Position numbers and translations under genes: made by a program. From Thermoplasmatota archaeon (GTDB taxonomy: Archaea > Thermoplasmatota > Thermoplasmata > UBA10834), in assembly GCA_040751795.1 (NCBI GenBank), contig JBFMHR010000003.1:32001-96000 (forward strand): DNA of 64,000 bases, written 5' to 3'. A model generated the notes under the pieces. That model did not search any database. It worked only from the letters and a program-made list of their open reading frames with translations, and was not told where the DNA came from. This document shows, in pieces, positions 11,012 to 42,629 of this stretch (the first letter of the stretch is position 1; every line of letters begins with the position of its first letter).

Positions 11012-12067
11012 TCATCCTAAGGCCCCTGCAAGGCCGTACGAGGGCGGCCTGTAGCCGACCTCCTCGATGCCTACCGGGGACGAGCACTGCGCCGCCGCTC
11101 CGGGCGTCCTGATGCCCGTGACGATCGCCATGAGCTTGATGTTGCTGCCAGCGTCGGGGTCTATGCGTGCGCCGAGCTTGATGTTCGCCGTGTCGCCGAG
11201 CCTGTTGGTTATGCCGTTGAAGACCTCGTAGGCCTTCCTCAGGGAGAGCGTGGGCCCGCCCGTGACGTGTATCATCGCCCCGGTGGCGCCCTCGAAGTCT
11301 ATGTCCAGGAGGGGGTTGCTGATCGCCTCGAGGACGACCTTGTGGGCGTCCTCGCTCTCGCCGTAGAGGACCGTGGACGCGCCGCCCTTGAGCATCATCG
11401 TCCTGAAGTCCGCGAAGTCCAGGTTGATCATGCTGGTCTCGCAGATCGTCTCGGTGACGCCCCTGACGACCTCCACGATGAGCTGGTCCATGACCATGAA
11501 CGCCTGCTCTATCGGCAGCTTGGGCACTATCTTGAGGAGCCTGTTGTTGTCGAGGATGATGGTGCTGTGGGCGCGCTCGCGCAGCTTCGCGATCCCCGCC
11601 ATGGCCACGCGCGACCTGCCCTTCTCTATGTCGAAGGGGATGGTCACGAGCGCGACGGAGATCGCGCCGTGCTTGCGGGCCGCCTCCGCGACGACCGGGG
11701 CGACTCCCGTGCCCGTCCCCCCGCCCATGCCGGCGGCGACGAACACGATGTCGTAGTCCCGGACGAGGAGCTCGATCTTGTCCAGGTAGTCGTAGGCGAC
11801 CTTCTCCCCTATGGCGGGGTCGCCCCCCGTGCCGTATCCGTTGGTGAAGTTGTCGCCGATGAGGAGCTTCTTGCCGGCGTTCACCCTGGACATGTGGAAC
11901 TTGTCGGTGTTGATGGCTATGGTGTCCGCCTCGAGGCCGGCCTGGTTCATCCTGTGCACGCTGTTGGAGCCGCCGCCTCCGCAGCCGACGACGCAGATCT
12001 TGGGGGACAGGCGCGCCTCGAGGTCGCAGTCGTTCTCGAGGGCGTCCTGGATGATCCTGTTGAGCAT
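11012..12067 (-). CDS. ftsZ: Cell division protein FtsZ, FtsZ2-type
   Basis: GCGGGGSN, GMGGGTGTG tubulin signature, INLDFAD T7 loop; lies downstream of an RHH regulator as in cdrS-ftsZ2 loci. Confidence 0.92.
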   Translation of the reverse strand: MLNRIIQDALENDCDLEARLSPKICVVGCGGGGSNSVHRMNQAGLEADTIAINTDKFHMSRVNAGKKLLIGDNFTNGYGTGGDPAIGEKVAYDYLDKIELLVRDYDIVFVAAGMGGGTGTGVAPVVAEAARKHGAISVALVTIPFDIEKGRSRVAMAGIAKLRERAHSTIILDNNRLLKIVPKLPIEQAFMVMDQLIVEVVRGVTETICETSMINLDFADFRTMMLKGGASTVLYGESEDAHKVVLEAISNPLLDIDFEGATGAMIHVTGGPTLSLRKAYEVFNGITNRLGDTANIKLGARIDPDAGSNIKLMAIVTGIRTPGAAAQCSSPVGIEEVGYRPPSYGLAGALG

Positions 12068-12155
12068 GCGCTAACCGCACCTCCCGGGGGAGGGCGTGCG
12101 CTCATGCGTACATGCGTGCGTGGCCGACATCTTCCCATCCCTTGTTTCTAGGCCG

Positions 12156-12470
12156 TCACCGCTCCAGTTCCTCTATCGCCTTCGACAGCCTCTTGCGTAT
12201 GTATTCGCGCACGGCGTTCCTTATCGCGTCGTCGACGGACACGGAGTCGCCGTCCTGGACGAGCTGCTTGAGGTTGACCACATTCCCCTTGGGCAGCTCG
12301 ACTGTGACCTTCTCTATGTACTCGGGCGTGAACTCGCCCTCGACGAACTTGTCGATGGCGGCCCTAATCGCGTCAGATATGGTGGAGAACCTGCCCTGGT
12401 CCACGAGAGCCTGGAGTGCATGGATGCGCTCCTCCGGGAGCCGGATTGTGACCCGCTCTGACTCTACCAT
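12156..12470 (-). CDS. Tandem ribbon-helix-helix regulator, CdrS-like
   Basis: ERVTIRLP...LVDQGRFSTISDAIRAAI followed by a second unit, EKVTVELP...LVQDGDSVSVDDAIRNAV; immediately upstream of ftsZ2. Confidence 0.85.
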   Translation of the reverse strand: MVESERVTIRLPEERIHALQALVDQGRFSTISDAIRAAIDKFVEGEFTPEYIEKVTVELPKGNVVNLKQLVQDGDSVSVDDAIRNAVREYIRKRLSKAIEELER

Positions 12471-12537
12471 CTGGCAGCCTCCTGTCGTCCGACGATATCG
12501 CGGTGTTCGTCAGACAAATGTCAGTATCAACTCCGTG

Positions 12538-12553
12538 ATATTTATACCTTTTC
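12538..12553 (-). promoter_or_regulatory. BRE/TATA promoter of the cdrS-ftsZ2 unit
   Basis: Minus strand reads GAAAAGGTATAAATA, about 70 bp upstream of the RHH start. Confidence 0.6.
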
Positions 12554-12560
12554 AGCCCTC

Positions 12561-12940
12561 GGTTCTGGTGCATTAGCGGGTGTTGGCCGTCCGCTGTTTG
12601 TCCGCTGTTTCTTTTCGGGTGCTGGCTAGCTTCAATAACTCGTGCCATTTGAAGCCCTTTAGAGGGGGCAGATCGGCGGCCTCTCCAGGGGTCTTTCCTA
12701 GTGTCTGATGCGTCCGCACCATGTCGTAGTGCACTCTCCACCCGTCCATCAGGGCGGCTGCGCCCGTCTCTCCGTCGAAGGCCCTCATGACCTTGGTTCG
12801 GGACTTCTCCGAGCCGTGGAGCCTCTCGATCTTGTTGTTGTTCTTCTCCGCCCTGATGCTCTCGACCAGGACATGCGGGTTCTTGTGGCCCGTGCCAAGC
12901 TCGCGCCTGATGGCCTTCGGGTAGCCTGGAGGCAACGTCG
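12561..12940 (-). mobile_element. Truncated IS6-family element: terminal inverted repeat plus 3' part of a DDE transposase
   Basis: End GGTTCTGGTGCA resembles IS6-family IRs (GGTTCTGTTGCA type). ORF YPKAI...NNNKIERLHG..K.RTKVMRAF...YDMVRTHQTLGKTP is an IS6-like C-terminus; the 5' half is missing. Confidence 0.82.
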
Positions 12941-12955
12941 TCGGGCATAATGTCG

Positions 12956-13747
12956 TCATCTCAAAGCCCACCGCAACACTTCCGACAATACCGTCAGTCC
13001 AATAGGAATGAGGATGTACGCCACAGCTGTCCAAAGCCGCTTCTTCCATACGTCTCCTATCCTACTATGCTCAGGGCCAGTTACGAGTTCGACTCTTGGA
13101 TAGAGGTTTTCAAACCGTTTAACAAAAGATGGCATTGCATATATCGCTGCGATGAAGAACACAAGGAAGAGAAACCAGAATGCGTTGCTATCCCACTCTG
13201 CATCCTCAGTGAGCTTGGTCAATATCACGATTGTATTCGTGAAGAGATAAGCGAACACTAGCGGCAATAATGTAATCATGCAGAATCGTCTTAGCTTTGT
13301 AAATTTCACCTGCGGCTTTGCGTCTCCGATTATCTTCTCTAGAGTACCCCGAATGCCATTTACCCAGATGTCCTGGCTACCTGTAACGGATATTACATTG
13401 TTTGTGTCGGTATCAGAACCATGTTCCAGCCGGATAGAAATGGTCTTATTCTCATCCTTATTCTCAAATACCATTTCTACATAGACAATCCTCTTGTCAT
13501 AGAGCCGTCCTCCTTCTGCGAAGACCCCTGCGTCGTCACATTCGTATTGCGTCCCGTCCGAACTTCGAAGAATGTATTTCCTCGTCGGTACTGTCCTTGT
13601 CGGTGGATACACAACAACAGGGTCATCGGGGTCAGCTTCCTCGGCAGTTTTCAGATATTCTGCCTCAATGACCTCTGCCAACTTCCTAATGTCGCCAATC
13701 GTGAATATCCTGTCAGAAATCCTGTATGGTGGCGGGGTGATCTTCAT
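12956..13747 (-). CDS. Hypothetical protein, soluble N-domain plus about 3 C-terminal TM helices (island cargo)
   Basis: 263 aa ORF, GGAGG SD, lower GC than flanks, three hydrophobic segments. Confidence 0.75.
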   Translation of the reverse strand: MKITPPPYRISDRIFTIGDIRKLAEVIEAEYLKTAEEADPDDPVVVYPPTRTVPTRKYILRSSDGTQYECDDAGVFAEGGRLYDKRIVYVEMVFENKDENKTISIRLEHGSDTDTNNVISVTGSQDIWVNGIRGTLEKIIGDAKPQVKFTKLRRFCMITLLPLVFAYLFTNTIVILTKLTEDAEWDSNAFWFLFLVFFIAAIYAMPSFVKRFENLYPRVELVTGPEHSRIGDVWKKRLWTAVAYILIPIGLTVLSEVLRWALR

Positions 13748-13987
13748 AATCGTTGATTCCTCCTTCGACTATCCACGTCGAAATACTATAGTGAGCTTAT
13801 GAATGTAATTCATGAATCATCTGGTCATGCTTGATTTCGCTGGATTCCGCCCACCACCCAAATTGCCACGCTCAGGCGGGGCCGTCAGACCACCCTCCGA
13901 TTTGCTCCAGAACCTCAGCCTCGGGCATTGTCATCTTGAGTGTGATAGCCAGACCACGTCTGGTATGACGAATTTCTTACGAGTTCG

Positions 13988-14923
13988 CTACTCAGCTGAG
14001 TACTTGTATCGAAGGTCGACCAGAATCCTGTCATAGAGGTTAGAGGCACTCTCGAGGTATGCCGAGGCGGCAAGGGCTTTTCCCCTCAGTTCTTCTGAAT
14101 GGAGGGCAGTAACAAGACCTGGTACCCTGATCTTCTTGCCATCGAGATTGCTGATCACGAAAGGTCGGTCGCCACCCCATATCAAAGTGTTGAAATAATC
14201 CTTCTGAGGTGATTGGCTTTGGTGCTCCGTGAGATGCTTGTACATTGTGAAGACCACGCTGCGCACAATCTCGGTCTGGTCATCCGGCTTCGTGCGTTCT
14301 ACATCCACTCCTTTCGCAATCTCATAGGCTTCGGTGGCAAAGTCGTTGAAATTCCTGATGAACGAGACTGATTCCTTCTCCAGCTCATCCATCATATTGA
14401 CAAGGTTTCCGTCGAGGTACTGCATGTCTTTCTGACGATCTGGCGTGATGTGCTTCCGCCACGCTGTCACAAGTCCCTCGGGAATCTTCCCGTCTTCAAA
14501 CCGAAGATTGCCAGCTCTGATTCTGACAACTGTGCTAGGCATCATAGAGGTCTTGTACTTGACAAAAGCTTCCTGGGCAGCAGCACTCAACTTCCCGTCC
14601 TCCTGCCTTAGGACTGATGCACGGTTTCGAAGGCTGACCGCCTTTCTATCAGCCGATAAAGTACACCACAGCGCGGAACACCACAACATTATCATTGAGA
14701 AGAAGGTGAGCGCCGATGCGACAACGGCTATCTGCCTGAAGGGCTCGCCCTCCGGTGCATACGCGAGACTCGTTAGGAGGGCTACGAGAACCACAATAAT
14801 CACAGTTGGCAGCCCCTTCAGGAGACTCATCCATATCTCCCTGTGAGTTTCGAGGTCTTGAATGTCTTGATTGGATTGCCTAAGTTCCTCATTGAGACCT
14901 GCAAGCCTTCCGCCCACAACCAT
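13988..14923 (-). CDS. Hypothetical protein, 2 TM helices plus helical C-domain (island cargo)
   Basis: 311 aa ORF with lower GC and two hydrophobic segments near the N-terminus. Confidence 0.65.
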   Translation of the reverse strand: MVVGGRLAGLNEELRQSNQDIQDLETHREIWMSLLKGLPTVIIVVLVALLTSLAYAPEGEPFRQIAVVASALTFFSMIMLWCSALWCTLSADRKAVSLRNRASVLRQEDGKLSAAAQEAFVKYKTSMMPSTVVRIRAGNLRFEDGKIPEGLVTAWRKHITPDRQKDMQYLDGNLVNMMDELEKESVSFIRNFNDFATEAYEIAKGVDVERTKPDDQTEIVRSVVFTMYKHLTEHQSQSPQKDYFNTLIWGGDRPFVISNLDGKKIRVPGLVTALHSEELRGKALAASAYLESASNLYDRILVDLRYKYSAE

Positions 14924-15132
14924 TGAACCGAGAACTACGAAGTTGGTGATTAAACTGACTCAGCGAACAGTCCACTGAATGGAGTCTCCCCCAACCATTC
15001 TCAAATGGGCAGATAAAACCGGCCTTCTCTGCGAGGGGCAGTCCACCCAGCACAGAGTGTCTCCTCAAGAAGTTGTACTGAATCACGGAAGAAGGCACCT
15101 TGTCATGACAATCCTCAAATAGCGCACAACAG

Positions 15133-15675
15133 ATGGATTCCTCTGGAGGAGGTGGTATGCAAGCCTCTAGTCTTAGTCTTGAGAAGAGAGGATTCTGGGA
15201 AGCATCGAGGGAGGCCTACAGGTTCATTCTGGCTATGGCCATCCTGATCATCTTCGGGATGTTGCTGGTAGCCACCATGGCGGGAGGATATACTGACCCG
15301 ACGGTCATTGCGGGCATGTTCAGCGGCTGGATAGTAGCCATCATTGGCTTCTACTTCATGGATGAAGTGTCTGCTCGGTCTACGTCCGAAGAGGTCAAGC
15401 GAGCAGTCCAGAGCCAATACGACGATGCATTCGCAGCGCACGAGGAGAACCTAAGGGCAAAAGACACCGTCATACAGCGGTTGAAGGACGAGCTAGTCAC
15501 TCTATCCTATGACTGTGCCAGGGCCAAGAAGGAGCGGGATGAAATCATAAACCAGCAGAAGGAGGCTCTCGAGAAGCTGATAAACGAGGTCGAGGAACGA
15601 CGAGCATTTGCGAAGCAATTCTCAGACATGCTAACTCAGCTTGGCCCGAAGCCAGAGAGTGTGAAGGAGGGATAG
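15133..15675 (+). CDS. Hypothetical protein, 2 TM helices plus coiled coil (island cargo)
   Basis: Two TM segments ending WIVAIIGFYF, then a heptad-rich tail. ATG 15157 after GGAGGTG is an alternative start. Confidence 0.75.
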   Translation: MDSSGGGGMQASSLSLEKRGFWEASREAYRFILAMAILIIFGMLLVATMAGGYTDPTVIAGMFSGWIVAIIGFYFMDEVSARSTSEEVKRAVQSQYDDAFAAHEENLRAKDTVIQRLKDELVTLSYDCARAKKERDEIINQQKEALEKLINEVEERRAFAKQFSDMLTQLGPKPESVKEG

Positions 15676-15708
15676 ATCCTTTCCAAGGAAAGGTGTGAGG
15701 TGCTGTCT

Positions 15709-15960
15709 ATGGCAGAGGAGAAGGAAACCCTGAAGCAAAAGGTTACCCGTTTCGAGGAATGGCTTGAAGAGATTGACAAGCAGAACCAGGTCAACTTCGA
15801 GGAATTGAAGCTGGTGCTCAAGCGAAAACCGTCTGAAGATGACTCATGTGCCGATGTCAGACTGGCTGTTCAGCAGACAGTTGCCAGGGCAACTGAGGAT
15901 AGTGTCAGGATAGACAACGAATCCAGGGAGAGATTGAGGAAGGTCAAGAGGGCGTTCTGA
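15709..15960 (+). CDS. Small coiled-coil hypothetical protein, likely co-transcribed with 15133-15675
   Basis: GAGGTG SD before ATG 15709; charged helical sequence. Confidence 0.65.
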   Translation: MAEEKETLKQKVTRFEEWLEEIDKQNQVNFEELKLVLKRKPSEDDSCADVRLAVQQTVARATEDSVRIDNESRERLRKVKRAF

Positions 15961-16001
15961 ACTTCAATCGAGCTCTGTCCACTGCTGCGTCCAATGATGT
16001 C

Positions 16002-35263: not shown

Positions 35264-36330
35264 CCATGGCCTCCGACGCGGAGAAGGTCCTGACGGACCT
35301 GGTGCTGATGAGGTCCCAGGAGACCGACCCTATGGGGCCCATCGCAGACTACGTGGCCAGGCGCATGAAGGCCCTCGGGATGGACGTGAGGAGGCACGGC
35401 TCCGCCGAGAAGCCCTCGCTCGTGGGCGAGCGGGGGAAGGGCGGCGTGGTCCTGTCGGGCCACCTCGACACCGTGCCCATAGGCACCGGCTGGACCAGGG
35501 GGCAGGGCGAGGTCGTGGACGGCGCCATGTACGGCCGCGGCACCAACGACATGAAGGGCGGGTGCGCGGCGATGCTGCTGGCGGCCGAGGAGCTCGTGGC
35601 CGCCGATGTGCCTTTCGCGCTCTGCTTCACCACCGACGAGGAGACGTCCATGGACGGGGCGGCCGCCGCGGCGAAGGACCCCGCGCTCGGCGCGGCCCCG
35701 GCGGTGGTCGTTACCGAGGCCACGGAGTTCGACATCGTCGTCAGGGAGAAGGGGCTGGTGCAGTTCTCCATCACCACCAGGGGGAGGCCGGCCCACGCCA
35801 GCATGCCCCACCTGGGCGAGAACGCCATCGCAGGGATGGTGTCGGTGCTCCACAGGCTGGAGGACGTCTACAGGCCCCCCAAGGACCCGCTGGAGCAGAT
35901 GACCCTGTGCGTCGACACGATCAGGGGCGGGACCGCGATGAACGTCATACCCGACGAGTGCGTCGCCGAGGTCGACGTCAGGTACCCGCCGCACATGAGC
36001 ACCCAGGCGGTCCTGGACCTGGTCAGGAGGAAGGTCGGGGACGCCAGGTTCGAGGTCAAGGTCCTGCACGAGCTGGACCCCGTGGAGACGGAGGCGGACA
36101 GCGGGGCCGTCAGGACCATGAGGGACGTCGTAGGCCCGGGGGCGAAGGTCCTCTCGGTGCCCTACGCGACTGAGATGGTCATGTTCAAGGCCGCCAACAA
36201 GAGGCTCATGGTCTGCGGGCCCGGTGAGTCGGCCGGGTGCCACATCCCGGACGAGAAGATACGCGTCGCGGACGTGGCCAGGGCGGCGGAGATCTACACA
36301 GAGTACTGCTCCCGCATGGCCGGCGGCTAG
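35260..36330 (+). CDS. M20 family metallohydrolase (ArgE/DapE-like)
   Basis: GHLDTVP, GRGTNDMKGG, DEE, GRPAHAS, CHIPDE. Confidence 0.92.
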   Translation: MTMASDAEKVLTDLVLMRSQETDPMGPIADYVARRMKALGMDVRRHGSAEKPSLVGERGKGGVVLSGHLDTVPIGTGWTRGQGEVVDGAMYGRGTNDMKGGCAAMLLAAEELVAADVPFALCFTTDEETSMDGAAAAAKDPALGAAPAVVVTEATEFDIVVREKGLVQFSITTRGRPAHASMPHLGENAIAGMVSVLHRLEDVYRPPKDPLEQMTLCVDTIRGGTAMNVIPDECVAEVDVRYPPHMSTQAVLDLVRRKVGDARFEVKVLHELDPVETEADSGAVRTMRDVVGPGAKVLSVPYATEMVMFKAANKRLMVCGPGESAGCHIPDEKIRVADVARAAEIYTEYCSRMAGG

Positions 36331-37616
36331 GGGAAGACCCTGCTGACCGTGCGCGGGTAGGGGATCGCGTCCCTGATGTGGTCCATCCTGCAGACCCACG
36401 TCAGGAACCTCTCGACGCCCAGGCCGAAGCCGGAGTGCGGGACGGAGCCGTACCTCCTCAGGTCGAGGTACCACGAGTACCTGTCCAGGCTCTCGCCCTT
36501 CTCCCTGATGCGCTCCATCAGGAGGGCGTTGTCCGTCTCCCTCTCGCTGCCGCCGATGATCTCGCCGAAGCCCTCCGGCGCCAGGAGGTCCGTGTTCTTG
36601 TAGGTCCTGGGGTCGTCCGGGTTCTCCTTCATGTAGAACGGCTTCAGCTCCTTCGGGTAGTTCATGACGAACATGGGGGTGCCGCTGTCCTTGGTCAGCT
36701 CGCGCTCCTCGACCGCCCCGAAGTCGGAGCCCCATTCCACGTCCAGGCCCTTCGCCTGGAGCCGCTCTATGGCCTCGCCGTACGGGAGCCTGTCGAACGG
36801 CGGCGCGACCCGCAGGAGGTCCGCGGGGTCCCGCTTGAACAGGCCGAGCTCGGCGCTGCAGTCCTTGGCGGCCCTGTGCAGCATCGCCGTCACGAGCTCC
36901 TCCTGGACCTTCATGTTCTCCGCGTTGTCGACCCAGGCTGCCTCCATCTCGAGGTGCCAGAACTCGGCGAGGTGCCTGGGGGTCCTGGACTTCTCCGCCC
37001 TGAACGACGGCGTGAGCGAGTAGACCTTCTCGCAGGAGTAGATGAGCGACTCGAGGTAGAACTGGGCGCTCTGCGACAGGTACGCTATCCTGTCGAAGTA
37101 CTTGATCTGGAAGAGCTGCGTGCTGTCCTCCGCGGCGACGCCTGTTATGATGGGAGGGTTGACCTCGACGTAGCCGTTCTCGTGGAACCAGTCCCTCGCG
37201 CCCATGAGGAGGGAGTCCTTGATCCGCATCGCGGCCGTCTGCTCCCTGGAGCGTATCCAGAGGTGGCGCAGGTCGAGGAGCAGCTCGGTGCTCTGGTACT
37301 CCGTGATGGGGAACGGCTCCGCCGGGCCCACGAGGGTGAACCTGGAGGCCCGCACCTCGAACCCGCCGGGGGCGCGCTTGTCCTCCGCCATGGTCCCCTC
37401 TATGATGGCCGATGATTCGATGCCCGCGTTGGTGGCCGCCGCGAAGTCCGGCTCCGGCACTGTGCCCTTCTTGACGGTGACCTGGACTATGCCAGAGGAG
37501 TCCCTGAGCACGGCGAACACGATCCCCCCGCTGCTCCGGGTCCGGTAGATCCAGCCCCTCACCTGCACGGCCTTCCCGACCATGTCCTCGGCGAGGACGT
37601 CCCTTATCGCGACCAT
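36327..37616 (-). CDS. asnS: Asparagine--tRNA ligase
   Basis: OB-fold GWIYRTR, RHLWIRS, YLSQSAQFYLE, FRAEKSRT.RHLAEFWHLE, GGSERE, PHSGFGLGVER. Confidence 0.95.
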   Translation of the reverse strand: MVAIRDVLAEDMVGKAVQVRGWIYRTRSSGGIVFAVLRDSSGIVQVTVKKGTVPEPDFAAATNAGIESSAIIEGTMAEDKRAPGGFEVRASRFTLVGPAEPFPITEYQSTELLLDLRHLWIRSREQTAAMRIKDSLLMGARDWFHENGYVEVNPPIITGVAAEDSTQLFQIKYFDRIAYLSQSAQFYLESLIYSCEKVYSLTPSFRAEKSRTPRHLAEFWHLEMEAAWVDNAENMKVQEELVTAMLHRAAKDCSAELGLFKRDPADLLRVAPPFDRLPYGEAIERLQAKGLDVEWGSDFGAVEERELTKDSGTPMFVMNYPKELKPFYMKENPDDPRTYKNTDLLAPEGFGEIIGGSERETDNALLMERIREKGESLDRYSWYLDLRRYGSVPHSGFGLGVERFLTWVCRMDHIRDAIPYPRTVSRVFP

Positions 37617-37682: not shown

Positions 37683-38174
37683 TTGGCGGTACCGCTGACC
37701 GTGAAGGTCAGGGAGGCGGCCCCCGAGGACCTGGGGGGCCTGATGCGCCTCGAGGAGGAGTGCTTCGGGGTCGAGAAGTTCTCGGAGGCCACCCTCATGG
37801 CGTTCCTCGTGAGGGAGGACGCCTTCGCCCTCGTGGCCGAGGAGGAGGGCGTCGTGGGCGCCGCCCTCTGCCTCTGCTCGAGGGGCAGGGCCGAGGGGAG
37901 GATAGCCTCGATAGCCGTCCTGGGGCGGGAGAGGAGGCGGGGGGTCGGGTCGCTGCTCCTCCGGGAGACGGAGGCGCGGCTCGAGGCGATGGGGGCCAGG
38001 ACCTTCGGGCTCGAGGTCGACGTCGAGAACGGGCCCGCGATAGCCCTCTACACGAAGCACGGCTACACGCTCAGGGCGATCGTGAGGGATTACTACGGCG
38101 CGGGCAGGCACGCGTACGTGATGGAGAAGTCCCTGAGCCCCCAGGGGTCGAGGGTCAGCGTCAGGCCTTCCTGA
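37683..38174 (+). CDS. RimI-like GNAT N-acetyltransferase
   Basis: SIAV..RRRGVG..L acetyl-CoA loop, LEV..N.PAIALY..GY, YY..GRHA.VM. Confidence 0.88.
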   Translation: MAVPLTVKVREAAPEDLGGLMRLEEECFGVEKFSEATLMAFLVREDAFALVAEEEGVVGAALCLCSRGRAEGRIASIAVLGRERRRGVGSLLLRETEARLEAMGARTFGLEVDVENGPAIALYTKHGYTLRAIVRDYYGAGRHAYVMEKSLSPQGSRVSVRPS

Positions 38175-41100
38175 CGACCAGCTCGAGCGGCATCCTGTCG
38201 ACAGTCCACTTGACGGCGCCCTCCGCTGGCTCCGACCGCGTGAGCGCGCGCGCGTGCGTCTCGTGGCGTATATGCTCCATGTGGGACGAGATGGCCGCCT
38301 CGATGTCCGGGTGGGCGCTGTACTCCACGACCACCTCGTCCTCGAACTCCAGGCCCTGCTCCTTCCTCATGTGCTGCACCCGCCTGATGACCTCCCTCGA
38401 GAGACCCTCCAGCCTCAGCCTCCGGTCCACCGCGAGGGACATGTAGGCGTGGATGTCGCCGGCGCTGGCGTGGGCGTACCCGCCCTTCTGCCTCTCCGAC
38501 ACCAGGACGTCCTCCTCGGTGAGGTCGAAGCCGCCGAGCCGGACCTTGCCCGATGCGCGCAGGTGCCTGACCAGCTCGCTCCCGTCCACCTGGTCCAGGA
38601 GCCTGGAGACCTCCGAGGCGGACTCCTTGAACTTGGGCCCGAGGGTCCTGAGGTTCGGGGACACGGCGAACTCCACCATGCCCTCCCTCGACTCGACGCA
38701 CTCGACCCGCTTGACGTTCAGCTCCTCCGCGATCATCCTCTCGTACCTGCGCAGGACCCATGCGACGTCCCTGCTGGAGGCTATCACCGCGTGGTCCAGG
38801 GGCTGCCTCAGCTTCACGTTCGCACCCTGCCTGGCGGTCCTCCCGGCCTCCACCGCCTGCCTCACGGCCGCCATCTGCGACTCGAGGGGTGGGACCACCA
38901 TCGAGGCGTCCGCCCTCGGGAAGTCCTCGAGGTGGACGCACCCCTTCGGCCCCTTCAGGCACCTGTACAGCCAGTCCGAGAAGAACGGCGCCGCCGGCGC
39001 CATGATGAGGGAGAGGGATGCGAGGCACTCGTGGAGCGTCGCGTGCGCGGAGAACCTGTCCTCGGGGTCGTTCTCCATCCAGAACCGCCTCCTCGACCTG
39101 CGGACGTACCAGCCGCTCAGGTCGTCGACGAACAGAGTGGTCGCGCGGACCGCCGACTGCACGTCCATCGCGTCGAACGCCGCCCTCACGTCCCCTATGG
39201 TCGAGTTGAGCCTGGACAGGATCCACCTGTCGAGGTCGTGGGTCCGGTCCTTCGCCCCCTGGCCCGTGTACCCGTAGGCGTTGGCGTTGGACGAGTAGAA
39301 CGCGTAGAGGTTCAGGACGGTCGTGAGCGTGCCCACCATCGTCTTCCTCACGTCCTCCATCGAGAACCTGACGGGGCTGGACACCGTCGAGCCGAGGAGG
39401 TACAGCCTGGCCGCGTCTGCGCCCACGGAGCCGAACACCTCGGCCGGGGACGCCGCGCCGGCGGCGCCCGCCCCCATCGCCCTGCCCTTCTCGTCGAGCA
39501 GGCGCTCCAGCACCAGCACCGACCGGAAGGCGGGCGCGTCGAAGAGCAGCGTGCCCACGACGTGCTGCGTGTAGAACCAGCCCCTGGTCTGGTCCGACGA
39601 CTCGGTGATGAAGTCGACCGACCTGTGCGTCTCGAACTCGGCGATGTTCTCGAACGGGTAGTGGTACTGGGCGAACGGGGCGCAGCCGGAGTCGTACCAG
39701 CAGTCGAGCACGTCCTGCTCCCTGGCCATCCCCGCGCCGCACTCAGGGCAGCGGAGGCGGACCGAGTCCACGGACGGCCTGTGGAGGTCCAGGGGCTCGG
39801 GGAGCGGCGCCTCCGAGAGACGGGCCAGCTCCTCCACGCTCCCGACGCAGACCTCGTGGCCGGACGGGCACCTCCAGACCGGCAGCGGGGTCCCCCAGTA
39901 CCTGCTCCTGCTGACCACCCAGTCCTTCGCGTCCTCGAGGAACGTGCCGAACCTGCCCCCGCCGTAGTCGGTCGGCACCCAGCTGATCTCGGAGTTGAGC
40001 TCGGCCATCCGCTCCTTCGCGCCCGAGGCGCGCACGGACCAGACGTCCCTGGGCTTGTACATGAGAGGGCTGCGGCACCTCCAGCAGAACGGGCTGGAGC
40101 GCCTGGTCAGGCCCCACTTGAAGAGGAGGCCCTTCGCCTCGAGCATGCGCACGACCTCCGGGGAGGCGTCGCCCACGCTCCTGCCTGCGAGGTCCGGGAC
40201 CTCTGCGGTGAACCTGCCCGAATCGTCGACGGGGTCGAACGGGGCGACGCCCTCATCCTCCCCGATCTGGCGGTCGACTGAGGCGTATGGGGGCGACACG
40301 TGCATGACGCCCGTCCCCTCCGCCTTGGTGACCTCGTGCGAGCCCACGACCCTGTGGCCCCTGCCCCCGAAGTCACAGTACGCGAAGGGAGGCTCGTAGG
40401 CCATGCCGACCAGCTCGGAGCCGGCCATCGTCCTGACCGGCCGGGCCTCCGGGCCCAGCATGTGGGCCTTGTCCTCCGCGACGATGGCGCGCTCGCCGGC
40501 CACCTCGTACACGCCGTAGGCCTTCGATGCGTCGACCGCGAGGAGCGCGTTCGCGACCAGCGTCCAAGGCGTCTCGGTGTAGACCAGGGCCGACGCGCCG
40601 AGCGACGGGACCCTGAACCTCACCACGGCCCACCTGACCTCCGCCTCCTCGAAGCCGAGGGCGACCTCGTGCGTGCTGAGGGGCGTGCCGCACCTGGGGC
40701 AGTACGGCGCGACCTGGAGCGACTTCGACACCAGGCCTCTGGAGTGTAGCTGCTTGAAGGACCACCAGACGCTCTCGATGTACTCGTTGGACATCGTGAG
40801 GTAGGCATGCTCGTAGTCGATCCCGTATCCGAGCCTGCGGCTCATGTCCTCCCAGTCGGCCTTGTACCTCACGACGCTCTCGCGGCAGGCGTCGTTGAAC
40901 CCCCCGACCCCGAAGGCCTCGACCGCGCCCTTGCCGTCGATGCCGAGGGCGCGCTCGACCTCGATCTCGACCGGGAGGCCGTGGCAGTCCCACCCCGCGA
41001 TGAAGGGGAGGACATCGCGGCCGTTCATGATGTGGTACCTGAGGAAGGAGTCCTTCACGGCGCGCGTGAGCGCGTCGGACATGTCGGGGGGCCTGTTGGC

Positions 41101-41253
41101 CGTCGGGGGGCCCTCGCAGAACACCAGAGGCGCCCCGCCCCGCATCCGCTCCTTCACCCGGGAGAGGGTCCCCTCCTCTCGCCAGAGCGCGAGGACCTCC
41201 TCCTCGAGCTGGGGGAAGGTCTCCCCCGCGGGTTCCCGGTAGTACCTCTTCAT
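38161..41253 (-). CDS. Isoleucyl-tRNA synthetase (IleRS2)-like protein with degenerate HIGH and KMSKS motifs
   Basis: 1030 aa intact ORF: GPPTAN, GWDCHGLPVE, DWVVSRSRYWGTPLP, DCWYDSG, DQTRGWF, WYVRRSRRRFW. HIGH position reads DMSD and KMSKS position reads AMGAG. Confidence 0.92.
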   Translation of the reverse strand: MKRYYREPAGETFPQLEEEVLALWREEGTLSRVKERMRGGAPLVFCEGPPTANRPPDMSDALTRAVKDSFLRYHIMNGRDVLPFIAGWDCHGLPVEIEVERALGIDGKGAVEAFGVGGFNDACRESVVRYKADWEDMSRRLGYGIDYEHAYLTMSNEYIESVWWSFKQLHSRGLVSKSLQVAPYCPRCGTPLSTHEVALGFEEAEVRWAVVRFRVPSLGASALVYTETPWTLVANALLAVDASKAYGVYEVAGERAIVAEDKAHMLGPEARPVRTMAGSELVGMAYEPPFAYCDFGGRGHRVVGSHEVTKAEGTGVMHVSPPYASVDRQIGEDEGVAPFDPVDDSGRFTAEVPDLAGRSVGDASPEVVRMLEAKGLLFKWGLTRRSSPFCWRCRSPLMYKPRDVWSVRASGAKERMAELNSEISWVPTDYGGGRFGTFLEDAKDWVVSRSRYWGTPLPVWRCPSGHEVCVGSVEELARLSEAPLPEPLDLHRPSVDSVRLRCPECGAGMAREQDVLDCWYDSGCAPFAQYHYPFENIAEFETHRSVDFITESSDQTRGWFYTQHVVGTLLFDAPAFRSVLVLERLLDEKGRAMGAGAAGAASPAEVFGSVGADAARLYLLGSTVSSPVRFSMEDVRKTMVGTLTTVLNLYAFYSSNANAYGYTGQGAKDRTHDLDRWILSRLNSTIGDVRAAFDAMDVQSAVRATTLFVDDLSGWYVRRSRRRFWMENDPEDRFSAHATLHECLASLSLIMAPAAPFFSDWLYRCLKGPKGCVHLEDFPRADASMVVPPLESQMAAVRQAVEAGRTARQGANVKLRQPLDHAVIASSRDVAWVLRRYERMIAEELNVKRVECVESREGMVEFAVSPNLRTLGPKFKESASEVSRLLDQVDGSELVRHLRASGKVRLGGFDLTEEDVLVSERQKGGYAHASAGDIHAYMSLAVDRRLRLEGLSREVIRRVQHMRKEQGLEFEDEVVVEYSAHPDIEAAISSHMEHIRHETHARALTRSEPAEGAVKWTVDRMPLELVVRKA

Positions 41254-41598
41254 GGCAACAGACTCCTCCAAAAGGGGCTCTATCACATACTCGGCAATGG
41301 TGGCATGAATCAGCCAATAGCTATAATCAGGGACTGGCCAGCCGAGTACATCGGAGGGTTTGGAACGACGGTCACGATATATAATACCTAGTCGCGGGCG
41401 ATGGACGCTATTGGTCATCGGCGCTGCGGGCGCGCCCGGGCCCGTGACTAGGCGTGTCATGGCACGGCCCGCGCATGCTGGCCTGTTGCCAGGGCCGCAG
41501 GGCCTCTAAGAAAGTAATATATAACAGAGGACATATAGCGCGCCAGCGTGCAATCCATGGCCCGGGGTGGTGCCCAGGGCCAGATGGGGTGAACACGG

Positions 41599-41769
41599 AT
41601 GGAAGAGCCCTTGTGCAACGTGGAGTTTCTGAAGAGCAACGCCTCGTACGTGGCCAGAGTACAGAGCGACCTGGGCGGAGTGAGGGAGTACAGGAGCGCC
41701 TCGTTGGAGGAGATACTTGAGCAGGTGATCATAGACCTCCAAGAGGAGTTCGAGGGCGCGCGCCTTTAA
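41599..41769 (+). CDS. Small acidic hypothetical protein, 56 aa; not in ORF track
   Basis: GGGGTGA SD, MEEPLCNVEFLKSNASYVARVQSDLGGVREYRSASLEEILEQVIIDLQEEFEGARL*; TATA-like TAATATATAA near 41515. Confidence 0.75.
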   Translation: MEEPLCNVEFLKSNASYVARVQSDLGGVREYRSASLEEILEQVIIDLQEEFEGARL

Positions 41770-41892: not shown

Positions 41893-42234
41893 ATGGAAGA
41901 GAAGGACAAGAAGGAGTACGAGGAGATCATCTCGTCCTACTACGGCGAGGACCAGGTCGCCGCGCTCGTGAGCTTCAAGATAGACACCAAGGGCTCCGAC
42001 ACGGTGGCGCAGAAGATCGCGGGGTTCGACCACGTCGAGGACGTGTTCCTGGTGACGGGCGACACCGACATCATCGCCAAGGCCAGGTTCCCCAACTACG
42101 CGTCCCTGAAGAAGTTCATAGTCGACGACGTCGCGGGCATAGAGGGCGTGAAGGAGACCAAGACATTCATGGTCGTCACGACGTTCAAGGAGAGGGGCAA
42201 GGTCAGGGAGCCCGAAGAGGAGCAGAAGGAATAG
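41893..42234 (+). CDS. Lrp/AsnC ligand-binding (RAM) domain protein, no HTH
   Basis: VEDVFLVTGDTDIIAK, IEGVKETKT. Confidence 0.88.
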   Translation: MEEKDKKEYEEIISSYYGEDQVAALVSFKIDTKGSDTVAQKIAGFDHVEDVFLVTGDTDIIAKARFPNYASLKKFIVDDVAGIEGVKETKTFMVVTTFKERGKVREPEEEQKE

Positions 42235-42278: not shown

Positions 42279-42533
42279 ATGGATATGGAGACGAGGCTCA
42301 GGCAGATAATGGAGGTGTTGGACCAGCTTGCGGACGACAACTCCGTACCGAGGAACATAAGGCGCGGGGCGACCCAGGCCAAGGAGCGGCTCTCGCAGAG
42401 GAGCGAGGCGCTCGACATCAGGAGCGCCAGCGCGATCATGATACTCGACGAGCTGGCGAACGACCCGAACATACCGCTGCACGGGCGCACGCTGATCTGG
42501 AACATCATCAGCCAGCTCGAGACGGTCAAGTGA
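42279..42533 (+). CDS. UPF0147 family protein
   Basis: D.SVPRNIRR.A, ILDELANDPNIPLHGRTLIWNIISQLE. Confidence 0.93.
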   Translation: MDMETRLRQIMEVLDQLADDNSVPRNIRRGATQAKERLSQRSEALDIRSASAIMILDELANDPNIPLHGRTLIWNIISQLETVK

Positions 42534-42538
42534 AACCT

Positions 42539-42610
42539 GCGGCTGTAGTCTAGTGGTTAGGACTGAAGCTTCCCAAGCTTTAAGCCCGGGTTCGAATCCC
42601 GGCAGCCGCA
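42539..42610 (+). tRNA. tRNA-Gly(CCC), intronless
   Basis: Acceptor stem GCGGCTG/CAGCCGC, anticodon arm GAAGC TT CCC AA GCTTT, T arm CCGGG TTCGAAT CCCGG, discriminator A. Confidence 0.96.
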
Positions 42611-42629
42611 CTCATACCCCGCGGCCGGC

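Follow-up and report, generated by a model that had tools for sequence, protein, structure and literature searches.

Does a gene with the score of an isoleucyl-tRNA synthetase (IleRS) still encode one once the signatures of its catalytic centre are gone? The question is raised by a stretch of 64,000 nucleotides from a Thermoplasmatota archaeon (hereafter the window; GenBank assembly GCA_040751795.1, contig JBFMHR010000003.1, positions 32,001 to 96,000 of the forward strand), in which a stop-free open reading frame (ORF) of 1030 codons encodes the IleRS2-type protein P0001. We consider P0001 a well-supported pseudo-synthetase candidate, with a function that we infer from its sequence: the protein has probably given up aminoacylation and would serve as a non-catalytic or ATP-independent binder of tRNA-Ile, perhaps also of isoleucine. 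All positions given below are those of the window, where the gene is located as follows:

38161..41253, minus strand: degenerate IleRS2-type paralog P0001, 1030 amino acids, established by ORF, translation, hidden Markov models and structure model (stop codon at 38161-38163)

A sequence-only reading of the locus had described an intact frame of 1030 residues colinear with IleRS2, and the translation, the Pfam domains (tRNA-synt_1, Anticodon_1 and DUF5915) and a full-length superposition on the PDB entry 8c8v bear this out. The same reading expected automated pipelines to call the gene ileS. P0001 indeed reached 686.4 bits against TIGR00392, the NCBIfam ileS equivalog, with a curated cut-off of 621.4 bits, and the source records name its orthologs isoleucine--tRNA ligase. 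An alternative longer frame extends to 41460. Because the starts of the orthologs coincide with the MKRYYREP position of P0001, and because indels of one base occur upstream of 41253, at 41422-41438, in near-identical contigs of public runs, with none within 38161-41253, the start at 41253 is likely and use of the longer frame unlikely. Contigs from four public runs, originating from four studies, spanned the gene without any indel in its coding part; these contigs were 90–99% alike, a single run held at most 21% of the sampled sequence words, and the comparison covers indels. The GC content of the gene is that of its surroundings.

A large protein collection yielded 113 further cluster representatives at 57–84% identity to P0001, followed by a sharp gap to six at 43–45%. 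The resulting clade of 114 sequences carries source names of isoleucine--tRNA ligase of Thermoplasmata or 'Euryarchaeota' metagenome-assembled genomes (MAGs). In the 111 full-length clade sequences, we scored those 178 columns of the alignment that reach ≥93% conservation among 28 canonical IleRS (17 of the archaeal type, type A, and 11 of the same type as P0001, type B). The clade retained 135 of these columns at ≥90% and 22 at 50–90%, and lost 21, with the losses concentrated at the TANG Gly and the initial His of HIGH, in the KMSKS loop, and at the hinge into the connective peptide 1 (CP1) domain and the two editing motifs. In P0001, conserved-column comparison and translation place them as follows:

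41092..41094, minus strand: TANG-motif Gly replaced by Arg at residue 54 (column conserved at ≥93% in the 28 canonical sequences, Gly kept in 1% of 111 clade sequences)
41074..41085, minus strand: HIGH-equivalent codons reading DMSD, residues 57-60 (HIGH in the canonical same-type enzymes, HMGD or HFGD in relatives of the genus)
40561..40581, minus strand: CP1 editing Thr-rich motif, YTETPWT instead of WTTTPWT, residues 225-231 (clade retention of T227, T228 and T231 at 8–48%, of T226 at 86%)
40291..40317, minus strand: CP1 editing motif GTGxVHxAP, reading GTGVMHVSP, residues 313-321 (His kept in 16% and Ala in 13% of the clade, editing Asp327 kept in ≥90%)
39466..39480, minus strand: KMSKS-equivalent codons reading AMGAG, residues 592-596 (KMSKS in 0/114 clade sequences; confidence of the structure model 65 at this site)

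DMSD and AMGAG stand in the translation exactly as they had been reported. The clade further exchanged the DPS hinge into CP1 for an invariant Arg and carries the changes W647L, D660Y and K733R in the helical domain. The earlier view that the loss is limited to the ATP site has to be given up, since the CP1 editing motifs are degenerate too. Of the sequence features by which a functional IleRS is recognized, P0001 thus lacks the HIGH or G/AxHH signature and the catalytic lysines of a KMSKS loop, and its CP1 editing motifs are degenerate apart from the retained Asp327.

Set against these losses is a group of retained or newly fixed elements:

41116..41118, minus strand: invariant clade-specific Cys46 at the end of strand β1 (Cys in 100% of the clade; the canonical groups have Leu or Val)
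40966..40995, minus strand: retained GWDCHGLPVE, residues 87-96 (conserved at ≥90% in 111 clade sequences)
39682..39702, minus strand: DCWYDSGC, residues 517-524, in which the pocket Trp is flanked by two cysteines peculiar to the clade, Cys518 (96%) and Cys524 (100%) (residue comparison)
39571..39603, minus strand: retained second pocket motif ESSDQTRGWFY, residues 551-561 (E551, D554, Q555 and T556-Y561 kept at ≥90%)
38161..39333, minus strand: retained anticodon-binding helical and C-terminal DUF5915 domains, residues 641-1030 (Pfam; ratio of non-synonymous to synonymous substitution rates, dN/dS, of 0.12 and 0.15; full-length alignment to 8c8v)

GWDCHGLPVE and E..DQTRGWFY are what we take, from the structure papers on Thermus thermophilus IleRS, to be the motifs of the amino-acid (Ile) pocket. 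DW..SR.RYWG, WYVRRSRRRFW, the C-terminal GLAREVIRRIQHMRK block and all four zinc knuckles are preserved as well. The sequence-only reading described GWDCHGLP, WYVRRSRRRFW and the four Cys knuckles correctly. ESSDQ, which it counted as a deviation, is no defect: canonical same-type sequences carry EALDQ. Altogether the clade has fixed 45 residues that neither canonical group carries, among them Cys46, Cys518 and Cys524, which lie beside the pocket motifs. From the strand order of the Rossmann fold, Cys46 may come near Cys518 and Cys524 in space.

The extent of the decay differs between members of the clade. KMSKS was found in none of the 114 sequences and the TANG Gly in one, whereas HxGH is present in 66 and absent from 45, 3 sequences being truncated, from which we conclude that the loss of KMSKS and of the TANG Gly is ancestral to the clade and the decay of HIGH later and patchy. 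The KMSKS loop reads K[MILV]xKx in 12 sequences, K[MILV]xRx in 38 and neither in 64, and HxGH occurs together with K[MILV]xKx in 9/114. A deep ortholog such as that of G018 reads HIGH and KITKD. P0001 and three other sequences mark the extreme end of motif decay; Asp or Ser at the first His position of HIGH recurs in independent assemblies (P0003, P0012 and P0014). A motif-less clade, as the sequence-only reading had anticipated, thus exists, with 114 cluster representatives, 29 genomes and no KMSKS. Its concern that close orthologs might keep both signatures fell away for KMSKS; the decay as a whole is graded (HxGH in 66/114; K[MILV]x[KR]x in the loop of 50/114). Outside the clade, 6/6 of the nearest clusters carry PHIGH and KMSKS, and 5/5 same-type genes from other families are canonical. 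As a control, we used 80 IleRS2 genes from other organisms, the matches listed in a contig scan and mostly bacterial by record title. Among these listed genes, KM[SA]K[SHRT] was present in 80/80, HxGH (33) or [GA]xHH (46) in 79/80 and WTTTPWT in 78/80. No clear donor of the IleRS2 type emerged among at least 80 IleRS2 matches listed, at 34–42% identity.

Despite the loss of motifs, the gene is under purifying selection, as had been proposed. Nei–Gojobori dN/dS values were 0.08–0.21 for the degenerate gene (13 pairs; 0.18 for the pair of the window's own assembly, G000, with G003), compared to 0.06–0.18 for canonical type A (5 pairs). The values remained below 0.2 in all five domains (0.11–0.17; CP1 0.15–0.16), and the strongest relative relaxation was found for the C-terminal half of the Rossmann domain with the KMSKS loop (0.171 versus 0.056). 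In a quick IQ-TREE phylogeny (LG+G4, 53 rows) the clade was monophyletic with an approximate likelihood-ratio (SH-aLRT) support of 100 and a long stem of 0.55, and its topology mirrored the tree of the canonical type A copy with branches 1.4–1.9 times longer.

An AlphaFold2 model of P0001, calculated from 61 sequences, reached a mean predicted local distance difference test (pLDDT) value of 89.4 and a predicted template modelling (pTM) score of 0.82, with confidence dropping at residues 521-560 and in the former KMSKS loop (pLDDT 65). The modelling suggested in the sequence-only reading agrees with a solved IleRS2: P0001 superposed on 8c8v, the full-length IleRS2 of Priestia megaterium (P. megaterium) with its C-terminal tRNA-binding domain resolved, with a TM-score of 0.93 and a root-mean-square deviation (rmsd) of 3.0 Å over 1037 columns. 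The predicted full-length fold and the domain order are those of the IleRS2 structural type (Rossmann, CP1, Zn, helical and C-terminal DUF5915).

Is there a second enzyme to charge tRNA-Ile? In G000 (53 contigs, 92.8% complete), P0001 is the only gene passing the ileS cut-off. Each of the 29 searched genomes from this Thermoplasmata family (24/24 and 5 further) has a degenerate ortholog, and two IleRS genes were present in 24/24 same-family genomes and in 5 further family genomes among 22/22. The second copy, of type A, is ~34% identical to the degenerate ortholog, and in G017, G018 and G020, genomes of a single contig, the two copies lie on the same chromosome. Type A carries HIGT and MSKS together with intact WTTTPWT and GTGIVHIAP, and retains 181/197 columns conserved elsewhere; HxGT is taken as a working variant because the sole IleRS of neighbouring families carries it. 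A C-terminal extension of ~330 residues comprises HHH_5 (helix-hairpin-helix, HhH) and DUF835, as seen in L047 (G011:C1) and in a fragment on contig C12 of G000. We found no description of DUF835 paired with a tRNA synthetase, or of an IleRS–DUF835 fusion, in the main texts of the papers searched. At least 10 further DUF835-like loci were detected in G000 by tblastn.

The type A gene touches the contig start in 5/11 MAGs of the same genus, and its neighbours from G011 and G004 have collinear counterparts in the final 11 kb of C12. The last 555 bases of this contig (G000:C12:403536-404090, minus strand) encode 185 residues in a frame open to the contig end, 96% identical over 151 amino acids to the C-terminus of G011 type A and matching DUF835 at 5e-36. 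The canonical ileS is accordingly present in G000 but cut by the assembly break, with the integrity of the missing part read from its relatives. Synteny together with this contig-end fragment rules out the reading of the degenerate gene as sole ileS. The search for a second, canonical ileS proposed in the sequence-only reading was therefore answered in all relatives by the gene itself and in G000 by its 3' end. Among the 34 tRNAs found by ARAGORN in G000 none was a tRNA-Ile, the tRNA set being incomplete.

The neighbouring genes on the window are:

36327-37616, minus strand: asnS-like class II synthetase of the Asp/Lys/Asn type, 429 amino acids, two genes downstream of the degenerate ileS
37683-38174, plus strand: GNAT acetyltransferase gene, converging on the degenerate ileS and overlapping its 3' end by 14 bases
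41599-41769, plus strand: ORF of 56 codons without Pfam family, between the promoter region of the degenerate ileS and the RAM gene, kept in 20/23 family loci
41893-42234: gene for a stand-alone Lrp/AsnC ligand-binding (RAM) domain
42279-42533: UPF0147 gene
42539-42611: tRNA-Gly(CCC)

The block of asnS, GNAT, degenerate ileS, small ORF, RAM and UPF0147 is conserved in the family. GNAT adjoins the degenerate ileS in 23/23 family loci and the canonical same-type gene in 0/12 loci elsewhere, and none of the other neighbours stands beside the canonical same-type gene in these 12 loci of other families. Two synthetase-family genes, the asnS-like gene and the degenerate ileS, lie within 5 kb. An Rfam scan of 36-44 kb gave tRNA-Gly as the sole match. 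Further away, a stretch of low GC content at 12001-16000 (0.51–0.53 versus ~0.65) holds several ORFs of 150-311 codons; five tested ORFs were without Pfam match and the stretch without Rfam match, and it may be a foreign island.

How could such a gene have arisen and been kept? In the ancestor of a single Thermoplasmata family, an IleRS2-type paralog would have lost the TANG Gly, KMSKS and the CP1 editing motifs, with HIGH lost later in several sublineages. Purifying selection has since kept the protein full-length and, as modelled, correctly folded. Translation would be served by the second gene, the archaeal-type IleRS with its HhH and DUF835 tail. The degenerate protein may bind tRNA-Ile, charged or uncharged, and perhaps isoleucine, and its role could be one of sensing, chaperoning, sequestration or scaffolding. 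We favour tRNA-Ile binding that is non-catalytic or independent of ATP because the pocket motifs, the zinc knuckles and the anticodon-binding and C-terminal tRNA-binding domains are all kept. Two traits of a pseudo-synthetase are found here, a second and canonical gene with the same specificity within the genome and purifying selection despite the loss of motifs; the loss of aminoacylation, the binding of tRNA or isoleucine and any downstream role would follow from the motif loss combined with the conserved tRNA-binding domains.

Several observations weigh against this interpretation. Working archaeal-type enzymes carry HxGT, so that loss of the fourth HIGH residue, His, by itself is no proof of inactivity, and IleRS2 tolerates a swapped G/AxHH motif and stays active (PMC10485003). 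In view of the graded decay, deep-branching members might keep weak activation, and the function of the family might involve adenylate chemistry. The degenerate gene of G019 (L035, G019:C1:584601-587689) lies in two frames, owing to a real break or an assembly error. In G000 itself the canonical gene is represented by its last 185 codons alone. Synteny is conserved family-wide in general, and the neighbours therefore yield no functional clue. Finally, we found no RNA run among the public runs.

The most interesting rival to a pseudo-synthetase is an aminoacyl-tRNA-dependent transferase or other new enzyme, which would, independently of ATP, pass Ile from the Ile-tRNA-Ile supplied by the canonical copy to an acceptor bound in the remodelled ATP site, in the manner of SbzA. 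The retention of the Ile-pocket motifs and tRNA-binding domains alongside the loss of the ATP motifs would suit such an activity, as would the invariant C46, C518 and C524, together with H543 and R544, beside the pocket motifs, and the GNAT gene that adjoins the 3' end throughout the family. An IleRS-like, Ile-tRNA-dependent transferase has a precedent in SbzA (PMC6331615, PMC12945691). SbzA, however, has preserved HIGH and KMSKS-like motifs and is encoded in a biosynthetic cluster, whereas P0001 has housekeeping neighbours (asnS, GNAT, RAM, UPF0147 and tRNA-Gly). The GNAT gene is convergent and hence not co-transcribed, and orthologs differ freely at the HIGH and KMSKS positions, which speaks against these positions forming a conserved acceptor site. 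On balance, we regard a transferase as unlikely.

Could P0001 instead still work as an IleRS through a non-canonical active site, for instance as a spare that withstands a natural inhibitor of IleRS? Some ArgRS do without KMSKS, which counts in favour of this idea, and HxGH with K[MILV]xKx persists in the 9 clade members given above. IleRS2 enzymes, the classical spares resistant to mupirocin, also tolerate alterations of HIGH (PMC10485003), and NmLeuRS2, with Ser for Lys in KMSKS, retains ~1/42 activity (PMC4005665). Yet P0001 lacks both His, each replaced by an acidic residue, has Ser in place of the HIGH Gly and carries no Lys in its loop; the loop is unconstrained across orthologs, the editing site is lost, and nothing similar occurs among the 80 control IleRS2 listed. 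Residual synthetase activity is conceivable in deep-branching members and unlikely for DMSD/AMGAG, and as an account of P0001 we hold a working synthetase to be distinctly improbable.

A trans-editing factor resembling ThrRS-ed, in which the synthetic site is dead and CP1 clears Val-tRNA-Ile, would explain why CP1 is kept under selection (dN/dS 0.15–0.16) with Asp327 at ≥90%. The Thr-rich motif (T227, T228 and T231 at 8–48%, T226 at 86%), the editing His (16%) and the Ala of the AP pair (13%) are nevertheless poorly retained, and the canonical copy in the same genomes has intact WTTTPWT and GTGIVHIAP. The decay of both the synthetic and the editing centre weakens such a role, and with the editing active site not conserved we rejected it as very improbable.

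Slow neutral decay of a redundant gene, or an error of sequencing or assembly at the motifs, is hardly credible. The 1.4–1.9-fold faster evolution relative to the canonical copy, the dN/dS of the Rossmann C-half (0.17 versus 0.056) and the frame break of G019 would fit, but ORFs intact over family-deep divergence (57–84% identity) at dN/dS 0.08–0.21, 45 fixed clade-specific residues, Asp or Ser at the first His in independent assemblies and the contigs of 4 runs without coding indel argue against it.

The pseudo-synthetase interpretation gains a wider setting from sister families. Within a class sample of 201 genomes (including the unpublished G116, on which no claim rests), two IleRS matches were present in many genomes of families f1, f9, f10, f12, f16, f21, f22, f24, f27 and f28. 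In nine inspected genomes outside f1 that have a degenerate copy, from six families, the situation is a mirror image: the IleRS2 type is canonical and type A is degenerate, with a full-length open frame and the DUF835 tail, without HIGH and KMSKS and often without the pocket or editing motifs. These genomes and loci are:

Genomes: G034 and G066 (f9); G035 and G047 (f10); G037 (f12); G041 and G089 (f16); G084 (f24); G134 (f28)
Loci: L054-L056, L083, L084, L087, L088, L077 and L090

The window's family is the only one seen with the IleRS2 type as the degenerate partner. That the dead copy can be of either type would point to an unrecognized non-catalytic function of IleRS in these archaea. A broader proposal is that Thermoplasmata with two types keep one IleRS dead but selected, whichever type it is, for such a function; in the window's family this would be a sensor or transferase dependent on tRNA-Ile or Ile-tRNA-Ile, with the new invariant cysteines at the old pocket, and no passive relic. 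We offer this proposal tentatively and consider it rather unlikely.

Other genomes add to this picture. G075 (f22; L076, L080) seems to retain two canonical IleRS. The second IleRS of G070 (f21; L081, G070:C27) has a GVHH signature with AMHRS replacing KMSKS; in bacteria, the GVHH motif has been linked to hyper-resistance against mupirocin. In G124 (L089, L095; G124:C29), the archaeal-type gene is split in two frames, by a real break or an assembly error.

The graded series from nearly canonical to fully degenerate orthologs in one family makes the case unusually suitable for study, as do the canonical partner in the same genomes and the mirror-image loss in sister families. Pipelines name such genes ileS, and in fragmented MAGs such as G000 the dead copy can be the sole reported 'ileS', by which inferences of completeness and metabolism are distorted. 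In the main texts of the papers searched, we found no description of an IleRS that lacks both synthetic and editing motifs and is nevertheless under selection.

Non-charging synthetase paralogs are known for a few specificities, such as LeuRS-I, HisZ and the relatives of PoxA. The ThrRS-ed and ThrRS-cat of Crenarchaea are duplicated synthetases in which the inactive copy keeps its editing site and works in trans. P0001 shares with ThrRS-ed the origin in a duplicated archaeal synthetase, but its editing motifs are degenerate. According to the review PMC9437257 (on Weitzel et al. 2020), LeuRS-I of Sulfolobaceae is reported to form leucyl-adenylate but not to aminoacylate, and has a disrupted CP1 editing domain. 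It resembles P0001 as an archaeal class Ia paralog beside a canonical copy with disrupted CP1 editing, and differs in its reported adenylate formation, its divergent acidic C-terminal domain and its specificity for Leu, whereas P0001 belongs to the Ile family, has lost the ATP motifs and conserves the C-terminal domain. NmLeuRS2 of Natrialba magadii (PMC4005665) is likewise a second archaeal class Ia synthetase with a substituted KMSKS lysine; it is without editing activity and retains tRNA affinity. Unlike P0001, which lost both signatures, it charges weakly (1/42 to 1/260 of its partner) and keeps most motifs.

The closest solved structure, and the best sequence match, is P. megaterium IleRS2 (PDB 8c8u, 8c8v and 8c8w; phmmer E-value 6e-223, 37% identity, TM-score 0.93). 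Bacterial IleRS2 share with P0001 the domain order including the C-terminal tRNA-binding domain and the position as a second IleRS beside a housekeeping one; they are active and carry HxGH or G/AxHH plus KMSKS (PMC10485003), in contrast to P0001 with neither. SbzA of Streptomyces, an IleRS paralog with a non-charging job beside the housekeeping IleRS, retains HIGH and KMSKS-like motifs and weak charging and belongs to a natural-product cluster (PMC6331615), whereas the P0001 locus lies in no such biosynthetic cluster; P0001 may, by analogy with SbzA, have taken on a non-charging job beside its canonical partner.

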